From Heptranchias perlo (taxonomy: Eukaryota), in assembly GCF_035084215.1 (NCBI RefSeq), contig NC_090362.1:12214001-12278000 (forward strand): a stretch of DNA of 64,000 bases, written 5' to 3'. The notes beneath the pieces were generated by a model that made no database searches, was not told the DNA's origin, and worked only from the letters and a program-made list of their open reading frames with translations. The position numbers and the translations under genes are program-made. The first letter of the stretch is position 1, and each line of letters begins with the position of its first letter. Below are positions 54,626-57,384 of the stretch, piece by piece.

Positions 54626-55353
54626 ATATAAATGAGAGGTGTGTAGTGGCAAGAATCCTGCTGGCTGGGAGAGAGGAGGAGCAGTCACAGCATGCGACAG
54701 CCAATCTTCTACGGTGCAAGGTTGCAGACAACAGTGTTTACAGCCACTTCATGACCAGGGCTGCGAGTTTGGTCCAATTTATTCAGCCAAGCTGCTCAAG
54801 GTCACTGTGTATCTCAGCAGCAGGTATTATTTCCATACAGGAATGACAACAATCCTTGCGAATAGTAGACTCGAGCCATAGAATCCAGTGTCCATGTAAT
54901 TTTCTACTGAGTGCTCTCTTTATCTGACAATTCATTACTTTGCTGAAGTGGTGAGCATTTACCAAGTGTATAATCTGATAAACAGGCATGAAGATTTATG
55001 ACCCTATAACTGCTGGGTCCATCAGAATGACTGGCAGCTGGTATTGATTTGGGATGAAAAGTGTATTCGAAAATAACTGATTGGAGAGAGAAATGCTCTA
55101 ATCGGATTGATGCAAATGAAATCTAGTTCTATGCAGAAGATTTTGCTTTTCAACTGCAGATCATATCGGGCTCAGTTGGATGACACTCACTTCTGAGTCA
55201 AGAAGGTTGTAGGTTCAAATCCCACTCCAGAGACTTGAGCACATAATCCAGGCTAACACTCCAGTAGGCTACTGAGGGAGCACTGCACCGTTGGAGGTGC
55301 CGTCTTTTGGATGAGACACTAAATCGAGGCCCCATCTGCCCTCTCAGGTGGAC

Positions 55354-55843
55354 CGAGAAAACCAGACAGGTATCTATTCCGGTTCATGCCCAACAGTGCG
55401 GTAACACAGGACGCTGTGCTCTACGGGCTTTTTCCCAGGACGCACACCGAGACAGATATCAACCGCGGCTGGAAGACCATCAGCTCGGTGAAGGAGGCCC
55501 TTTGGTCCGCCCGAGACCTGCCGGTCTTCCAACTGAAGAAGCTGTCCATGACAACTGGCATATTCCAAGGTCCAGGAGTACGTGCTGCGGGACGCACTGA
55601 AACAAGGTGCGGCCTACACAAAGGCCCTATGGGGAAAGGCCACCGTGTAAGGCCATCCCACCTTGTATTGTACAGAATGTATTAGAAGATATGAACTGTG
55701 TTTAAATTGTAATAATGAGATCATAGTGGATATGATCTGCACTGTATTGCTTTGAACTGCCAGCTGGAATTTGTGTCTTTTTACTTGAATTGTGCGTATT
55801 TTTAAATTTTATGAAATAAAGTATATTTTGAAATTTAAAAAAA
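55354..55843 (+). mobile_element. L1/Tx1-type LINE 3' end, copy 1
   Basis: VTQDAVLYGLFPRTHTETDINRGWKTISSVKEALWSAR..SKVQEYVLRDALK..ALWGKATV*; AATAAA and A-tail. Confidence 0.8.
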
Positions 55844-55850
55844 GGTGGAC

Positions 55851-56732
55851 TGAGAAGGCTGGGTCTGGCCATGCCGGCGAGGTAGACGCAGGATGACCCG
55901 TCCAGCTGGACCGTACCCCATCACCTGTCCCAGGTGGAGAAGTTCCTGAGGAGGAACCCCTTCAACCACAAGGCTGTCAGACTGTGGTCAGCACGAAAGT
56001 TCTGGGAGGCCTGCAGGGAAAGGAGAGGGTGGATCCGATCGGGCAGTTCACCGGCCAGATGGTCGACGCCATTTGGCAAAACGTCTTGTCGCCGAAACTG
56101 ACCAACGGGCACCAGGATGGTGGAGAGACGGGCCCTCCCAGTGAGGTCCTTCCAACACGCACGGAATCTCAGCGCCACCACGAGCTGCCCTCGAGGCTGC
56201 AACGGGGGACGAGACTGCTGTCCACCTCCTGATGGACTGCCCCTTAGCGCAGAAGGTGTGGAGAGAGATGCGATGGTATCTATCCTGGTAATACAGGACG
56301 CTGTGCTCTACAGTTGTTCTCCAGGACGCACACCGAGACAGATATTAACTACTGCTGGAAGACCATCAACTCGGTGAAGGAGGCCCTTTGGTTCGCCTGA
56401 AGGAGCTGTCCACGACCGACTGTTGCCACCTGGCACACTCCAAGGTCCAGGAGTACGTGCTGCCGGACGCATTGAAGCGAGGTGCGGCCCTCACAAAGGC
56501 CCTATGGGGAAAGGGCACCGTGTAAGGCCACTCCACCTTGTATTGTACAGAATGTATTAGAAGATATGTACTGTGTTTTAAATTGTAATAATGGGATCAT
56601 AGTGTGTACGACCTGCATTGTATTGGTTTGAACTGCATTGCTTGAAATTGTGTCCTTTTACACTAAAGTGTGCGTATCTTTGAATTTTATGAAATGAAGT
56701 ATATTTTGAAATATTTTTTTAAAATTTGAAGC
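55851..56732 (+). mobile_element. L1/Tx1-type LINE 3' end, copy 2 (longer)
   Basis: SWTVPHHLSQVEKFLRRNPFNHKAVRLWSAR..CPRGCNG..HLLMDCP (CCHC-like zinc knuckle)..SKVQEYVL; same 3' UTR as copy 1. Confidence 0.8.
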
Positions 56733-57384
56733 GTGGACATAAAAGATCCCATGGCACTACTCGAAGAAGAGCAGGGATATTCTCCCTGGTGCCTGGCCAA
56801 TATTCATCCCTCAACCACTGTCACTGAAACAGATTGGTCATTTGTCTTATTGCTGTTTGTGGGATCTTGTTGTGTGCAAATTGGCTGTCGCGTTTCCCAC
56901 ATTATAGCAGCGACTACACTTCAAAAAGTACTTAATTGGTTATAAAGCGCTTTGGGACGTCCTGAGGTCGTGAAAGGTCCTATATAAATTCAAGTTCTTT
57001 CTTCTTTTCTTTTATACAATAAGATACCCTTTGCGGGGGGGACGGGGACACTCAGATAGCCTATCTCCTCTTATCTCCATTGTGTAAACAACATTTTTTT
57101 TTATCCAATCCATCTTTGCTACTCTGAAGATAACACTGAACTGCAGACAATGCATCCTGAATTCCAACTGTAGCATTTCTTCCTCTAGTTAATTGGTTTG
57201 ATCTGTCTGACACACTTCACCAACCATCCACACATGGAATGACCTTTGTCACTTCCGGGCCAAAGCACCTACAGCAGCAAAACGTCTCACACCAGAAAAC
57301 AGAAACTCATCTTAACTTGAAATTTTAGTTTATTTTTACTTTTCTAAAATTCAAATTATTGTTCCTCCCCTCTTGTACTTTTCT

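Follow-up and report, generated by a model that had tools for sequence, protein, structure and literature searches.

In crocodilians, Tx1-Mar and SINEU-3 are inserted in Mariner-N4_AMi, an abundant old transposon, and the report on them (PMC4494074) describes tandems of SINEU-3 that sandwich a 16-bp target site duplication (TSD) starting with AGGT, an arrangement explained there as sequential insertion. That source also states that 90% of SINEU-3 copies are flanked by their target, uses more than 20% of flanks carrying one kind of target as the criterion for a target-specific family, and cites Tx1L of Xenopus as nesting in Tx1D in a strictly site-specific manner. Keno, a LINE of the Tx1 clade, is specific for one site in U2 genes (PMC4640811 and PMC6136364). 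The literature that we searched, which left most subscription papers and Repbase outside, yielded these three papers alone as relevant, and no report of a SINE-targeting Tx1 element, of a shark Tx1 target or of a SINE body as a Tx1-type target; Tx1 goes unmentioned in the passages of PMC13343379 that we searched.

The locus described here lies in 64 kb of Heptranchias DNA, the whole of which was analysed and is called the window below. Its host is a SINE on the forward strand, with a 5' arm at 55160-55345 (start approximate) and a 3' arm, comprising body and tail, at 56739-57015, both of which matched other SINE copies in the window. Motifs resembling the A box (55169-55179) and B box (55212-55222) of tRNA-type promoters could be read in the 5' arm. 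The SINE runs from about 55160 to 55353, is broken at CTCTC|AGGTGGAC, and resumes at 56733. Seven further copies in the window span the site, and the arms rejoin in register with all of them; each of the seven is empty there, and their majority sequence across the site is CTCTCAGGTGGACGTAAAAGATCC. Compared with the majority sequence of the remaining window copies, the 5' arm differed in 23 of 162 columns and the 3' arm in 40 of 260, and this divergence of 14-15% indicates that the host SINE is as old as the inserts or older. A search of Rfam at the locus gave no match at E values up to 1. The host is presumably a Deu-SINE, with a central Deu-domain that would resemble those of AmnSINE1 and SacSINE1. 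SacSINE1 is entered as a tRNA-headed shark DeuSINE in a table of PMC3747384. A second copy of the SINE lies inverted at 54396-54555 (reverse strand), about 760 nt upstream of the host.

Two LINE 3' ends occupy the break, both on the forward strand. Copy A (55369-55843, or 55354-55843 from the edge of the repeat) consists of an ORF2 C-terminus with its stop at 55648-55650, a 3' UTR and a short A tail. Copy B (55851-56732) retains a longer, frameshifted ORF2 C-terminus (stop at 56523-56525) with the remnant of a zf-RVT domain, followed by a 3' UTR and a decayed tail. The 5' end of copy B reaches about 420 nt further than that of copy A, and both are 5'-truncated, with the endonuclease and reverse transcriptase domains absent. 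Aligned to each other, the copies differed at 44 of 423 bases (10.4%; K2P 0.11); stretches of 19 and 22 nt in A are missing from B, and 11 nt in B are missing from A. Copy A was 67% identical over 63 aa to the Heterodontus protein P0002, and copy B matched both P0002 and P0168 by tblastn; the zf-RVT remnant of copy B matched PF13966 at an E value of 0.0038, short of the curated cut-off. Thus an ORF2 C-terminus, an A tail, a TSD and 5' truncation, all features of L1/Tx1-type non-LTR elements, were seen at the locus. The start of the 3' UTR (55653-55698) is apparently repeated in tandem in many other copies of the family, as read from joints stepping back by about 46 nt and a spike of depth in contig alignments, while A and B have one unit each. 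No further copy of this type of LINE was found in the 64-kb window. Other repeats in the window include a reverse-transcriptase fragment of another type of LINE (47593-48065, reverse strand) and large minisatellites at 11782-12590, 33994-35630, 37147-37641 and 41011-41239 with periods of 30, 25 and 67, the 67-mer being found at two places.

The tandem is bracketed and divided by three copies of one short repeat. The left repeat, AGGTGGAC, lies at 55346-55353 and extends with CGAGAA to 14 nt (55346-55359), the candidate left TSD of copy A. In the middle repeat the same 8-mer (55843-55850) is followed by TGAGAA, the start of copy B (together 55843-55856), and the right repeat, AG(C)GTGGAC at 56730-56738, is the right TSD of copy B, with GTGGAC at 56733-56738 preceded by AGC. 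Within the whole 64 kb, the forward strand has AGGTGGAC at 55346 and 55843 and nowhere else, and chance would put the hexamer GTGGAC at two further fixed junctions (within 3 nt) with a probability of about 3e-6. Over the 14 nt made up of AGGTGGAC and YGAGAA, the left junction agrees with the middle one at 13, and at least five of six matches following the 8-mer would be expected by chance with a probability of 0.007. Between the left junction and copy A lie 9 nt (55360-55368) that may be an untemplated addition or the filler of a deletion; for these, a search of both strands of the body of copy B and of the surrounding 2.4 kb gave no significant match, and there is no second exact copy within 54000-58200. 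We also considered the first 17 nt of copy A as the remnant of a more upstream part of the element, and found no significant match in the body of copy B. An earlier note on this DNA had described a SINE split by two LINE ends, diverged from each other, unequal in length and with private deletions, lying in tandem and bracketed by the motif (AG)GTGGAC, which occurs three times, with YGAGAA at both starts. The locus agrees with that description, and the assignment of both ends to a LINE in the note is upheld.

We then considered the relatives of the family. The piece of ORF2 in copy A had 37 protein relatives by phmmer, and nine of ten that were looked up were named, as proteins of Heterodontus, Rhincodon, Stegostoma and Hypanus; a further cluster of relatives includes a Leucoraja protein and a member of 1,138 aa. 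The long relatives (1,095-1,176 aa) carry an endonuclease (PF03372), a reverse transcriptase (PF00078) and a zf-RVT domain (PF13966). In a quick, midpoint-rooted tree of 45 ORF2 proteins, from which the window copies A and B were left out, five elasmobranch relatives formed one group that joined amphibian ORF2s as its sister (SH-aLRT 100); the branch around them includes the reverse transcriptase BAD04856 of fugu, to which an elasmobranch ORF2 was 37% identical over 1,110 aa. BAD04856 is presumably KenoFr1, and on that presumption membership of the family in the Tx1 clade is likely. Many locus tags of the Pleurodeles relatives of this ORF2 (the cluster of P0044) are close to consecutive, a sign of possible local arrays in the newt genome. 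Scans for the element found no relative in viral contigs and none that could be confirmed in prokaryote genomes; in a scan of metagenomes (116 loci), the best matches were AT-rich, 22-43 nt long and attributable to chance, and were discarded as relatives.

The earlier note had proposed that this LINE family targets the SINE body, and had named as a check the 3' flanks of its other copies. We carried out that check with contigs of public assemblies, the best runs sharing 33-41% of sampled words; no RNA run was listed among those that share the sequence, which has no bearing on expression. The LINE region was covered by 787 to 12,556 contigs per run in four runs. The last 56 nt of copy A together with the middle repeat were used as the query in runs X1 and X3, both of one sample, in which 1,375 and 1,617 contigs aligned. 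Six of the rows listed (12 of 91) hold loose ends on the 3' side, with 48, 118 and 61 contigs for X1 and 44, 108 and 62 for X3, so that among these rows 227 and 214 tail-bearing contigs ran on into unrelated DNA. Overlap among contigs inflates summed depth, which was therefore not read as copy number, and the flanks are seen as a consensus through an aligner of unstated scoring, after some contigs had been filtered out. The A-B junction is missing from these runs (depth 0 at 55857-55866), so the sample may come from another, related species.

The 3' flanks of these hundreds of copies were heterogeneous and long (median near 255 nt). Their agreement was 0.33-0.36, compared to 0.31-0.34 in simulations with random flanks and 0.44 when 30% were placed at the SINE site. 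By hand count, the flank consensus at 55842 agreed with that of the SINE in 12 and 10 of 30 positions, and in 9 and 8 in the simulated register; the random mean is 7.5 of 30, and the probability of 12 or fewer matches is 0.042 with 15% of ends at the SINE site and 0.007 with 20%. Cover through GGTGGAC (55848-55850) amounted to 11.0 and 13.1 contig-equivalents in X1 and X3, computed with the mean depth of eight listed contigs per run. Simulated cover, over six tail models, was 3-13 for random flanks, 7-31 with 5% at the SINE site, 23-69 with 20% and 85-477 with 80%. One of five scoring schemes (1/-1) gave a chance cover of 26, yet it overshot the bins past 55850 and misfits the data. For this sample, then, the simulations rule out family-wide targeting of the SINE site, with a share of 20% or more, whereas a share of 5% or less is compatible with them; at most about 5-6% of 3' ends lie at the GGTGGAC-SINE site in one sample of perhaps a related species. 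For the SINE site in register this is below the share of more than 20% of flanks that PMC4494074 asks of a target-specific family. The claim of the earlier note was not upheld: agreement among flanks is at the random level, and no more than about 5% of ends reach GGTGGAC. What survives is a weaker form of targeting, either a loosely preferred putative nick or a small sub-lineage. A G immediately after the A tail (55844) was seen in 61-62 contigs, compared to 7-24 in models with random flanks and 9-46 in models biased towards an initial G. This excess may reflect a loose target preference or an effect of the aligner, and we regard it as a lead, as no simulation reproduced the count.

How, then, did the tandem arise? 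The locus is probably an ordinary nested insertion rather than the mark of a SINE-targeting element. Four readings were compared, and the weight given to each is a matter of judgement and not of computation. We lean, tentatively and with less than even confidence, towards two separate retrotranspositions that re-used one loosely preferred putative nick. Copy B would have entered first, at CTCTC|AGGTGGAC, with a duplication of 7-8 bp, and at the left junction of B the SINE sequence upstream and the nick itself would have been preserved. A member of the same sub-lineage, copy A, would later have used this nick, duplicating 14 bp, among them the first 6 nt of B, and adding 9 nt; we infer the order B then A. 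A TSD of 14 bp reaching into B would account for the YGAGAA common to both starts. The differing 5' ends of A and B, the junctions identical at 13 of 14 nt and the heterogeneous flanks all favour this course of events, which requires no large deletion, and the excess of an initial G hints at a loose preference. Against it, a family that has no fixed target would rarely use one nick twice, and the excess of initial G rests on an aligner of unstated scoring.

The letters in which A and B depart from the family majority also bear on this choice. Of the 40 rows listed, 25 were taken, of which four fell in gaps and three were not X1 majorities, leaving 18 informative. A and B have six of the 18 minority letters in common, eight are private to A and three to B, and at one position both differ from the majority and from each other; positions 55430 and 55433 were assigned to A by hand, the gap placement of the script being ambiguous there. 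Three of the six common letters are non-CpG and occur at 1-7% of X1 depth. Two random members of the family would seldom have such letters in common, which argues against re-use of a nick, and the common letters would fit a sub-family as well as a duplication.

A duplication is the strongest alternative, although we consider it unlikely. A B-length insertion with an 8-bp TSD would have been duplicated in tandem through the microhomology of its TSD, and the left copy would then have lost about 420 nt from a point 6 nt within its 5' end, where 9 nt of filler remained. This needs no target preference, in agreement with the heterogeneous flanks. It also accounts for the rare letters in common, which include three CpG-type changes (at 55437, 55618 and 56428) that alter a Gly found in 11 of 16 relatives, an Ala found in 8 of 13 and an Arg found in 13 of 14, as might be expected in a decaying common ancestor. 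However, two rare events are required, one with its breakpoint confined to a zone of 6-15 nt, and the first 17 nt of copy A lack a significant match in the body of B. No frame-breaking indel is common to the two copies, the 19-, 22- and 11-nt deletions all being private. Over 34 conserved protein columns, the two shared differences are both conservative (N>D and D>E), compared to three in A only, three in B only and two in which the copies are unlike. Insertion followed by duplication had been the alternative in the earlier note, which cited the common YGAGAA; the rare letters lend it support, while the first 6 nt are explained equally well by a 14-bp TSD. The literature searched held no paper on TSD-mediated duplication in such a setting.

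Somewhat less likely again is a minor sub-lineage, comprising 5% or less of the 3' ends of the family, that prefers the SINE site, A and B being two of its insertions into a target present at about 110 copies per Mb. Its preference might be helped by a look-alike of the site in the ORF2 of copy B (55916-55938, forward strand), which ends in CAGGTGGA and matches 55330-55352 at 18 of 23 positions. None of 118,304 non-SINE positions in the window reached 17 matches to this 23-mer, the site's was the one among 433 SINE 23-mers to reach 18 in copy B, and in shuffled copies of B any SINE 23-mer reached 18 in 1% of 200 shuffles. The look-alike came to attention post hoc and coincides with neither of the 5' junctions, so it is not tied to any mechanism. 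The rare letters common to A and B agree with such a sub-lineage, as do the observed cover, which lies at the top of the random range and within the 5% models, the hand-counted flank consensus, which exceeds the random mean, and one X1 contig from another locus that aligns as far as 55850. Relatives of the Tx1 type do target other transposons (PMC4494074). In the simulated register, however, the flank matches drop to 9 and 8, a second junction at the SINE site was not observed at the level of single letters, and the other copies in the window are all empty (7/7); at about 110 sites per Mb, a double hit on one site would be seldom even with targeting.

Sequence specificity of the whole family for the SINE body, as the earlier note had it, is very improbable unless the runs come from a species with another dominant sub-family or contigs bearing the SINE were selectively filtered out, for the local tandem and the reputation of the clade are all that speak for it, against heterogeneous, long flanks, an observed cover of 11-13 below that simulated for shares of 20% or 80%, and a probability of 0.007 for the flank consensus at 20%. 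Template jumping in a single event was rejected because it leaves the middle TSD unexplained, and 3' transduction because SINE sequence is missing after the middle repeat.

As it stands, the locus is a single decayed nested insertion, such as has been described before, and it cautions that three copies of a TSD around a tandem do not by themselves prove family-wide targeting. If a SINE-specific sub-lineage did exist, the SINE body would join the list of Tx1 targets, the LINE living as a parasite of a SINE that serves it as a safe harbour. Such a sub-lineage would further provide a natural example of a single family in which the cleavage of an APE endonuclease has turned from loose to specific, with a bearing on the evolution of specificity and on insertion tools based on retrotransposons.

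Like Tx1-Mar and SINEU-3, the shark locus combines Tx1-type machinery in another old, abundant transposon with tandem copies around a TSD, and the TSDs are alike in starting with AGGT. Unlike SINEU-3, found at its target in 90% of copies, the shark family has at most about 5% of its 3' ends at the site, and the host is a SINE, whereas that of Tx1-Mar and SINEU-3 is a DNA transposon. The likeness to Keno lies in an elasmobranch ORF2 that falls in a well-supported branch with BAD04856, presumably KenoFr1; in contrast to the one U2 site of Keno, the flanks of the family are heterogeneous and Rfam has no match at the locus. As in Xenopus, where Tx1L lies in Tx1D, a Tx1-type element is found inside another mobile element; Tx1L, however, is strictly site-specific. 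Adjacent Alu insertions reportedly re-use an L1 endonuclease site (El-Sawy and Deininger 2005). Here too a second element would enter a cut site duplicated by the first; for the Alus the enzyme is that of mammalian L1 with its T/A-rich consensus, whereas the site in the shark SINE is a pyrimidine/purine step, CTCTC|AGG.
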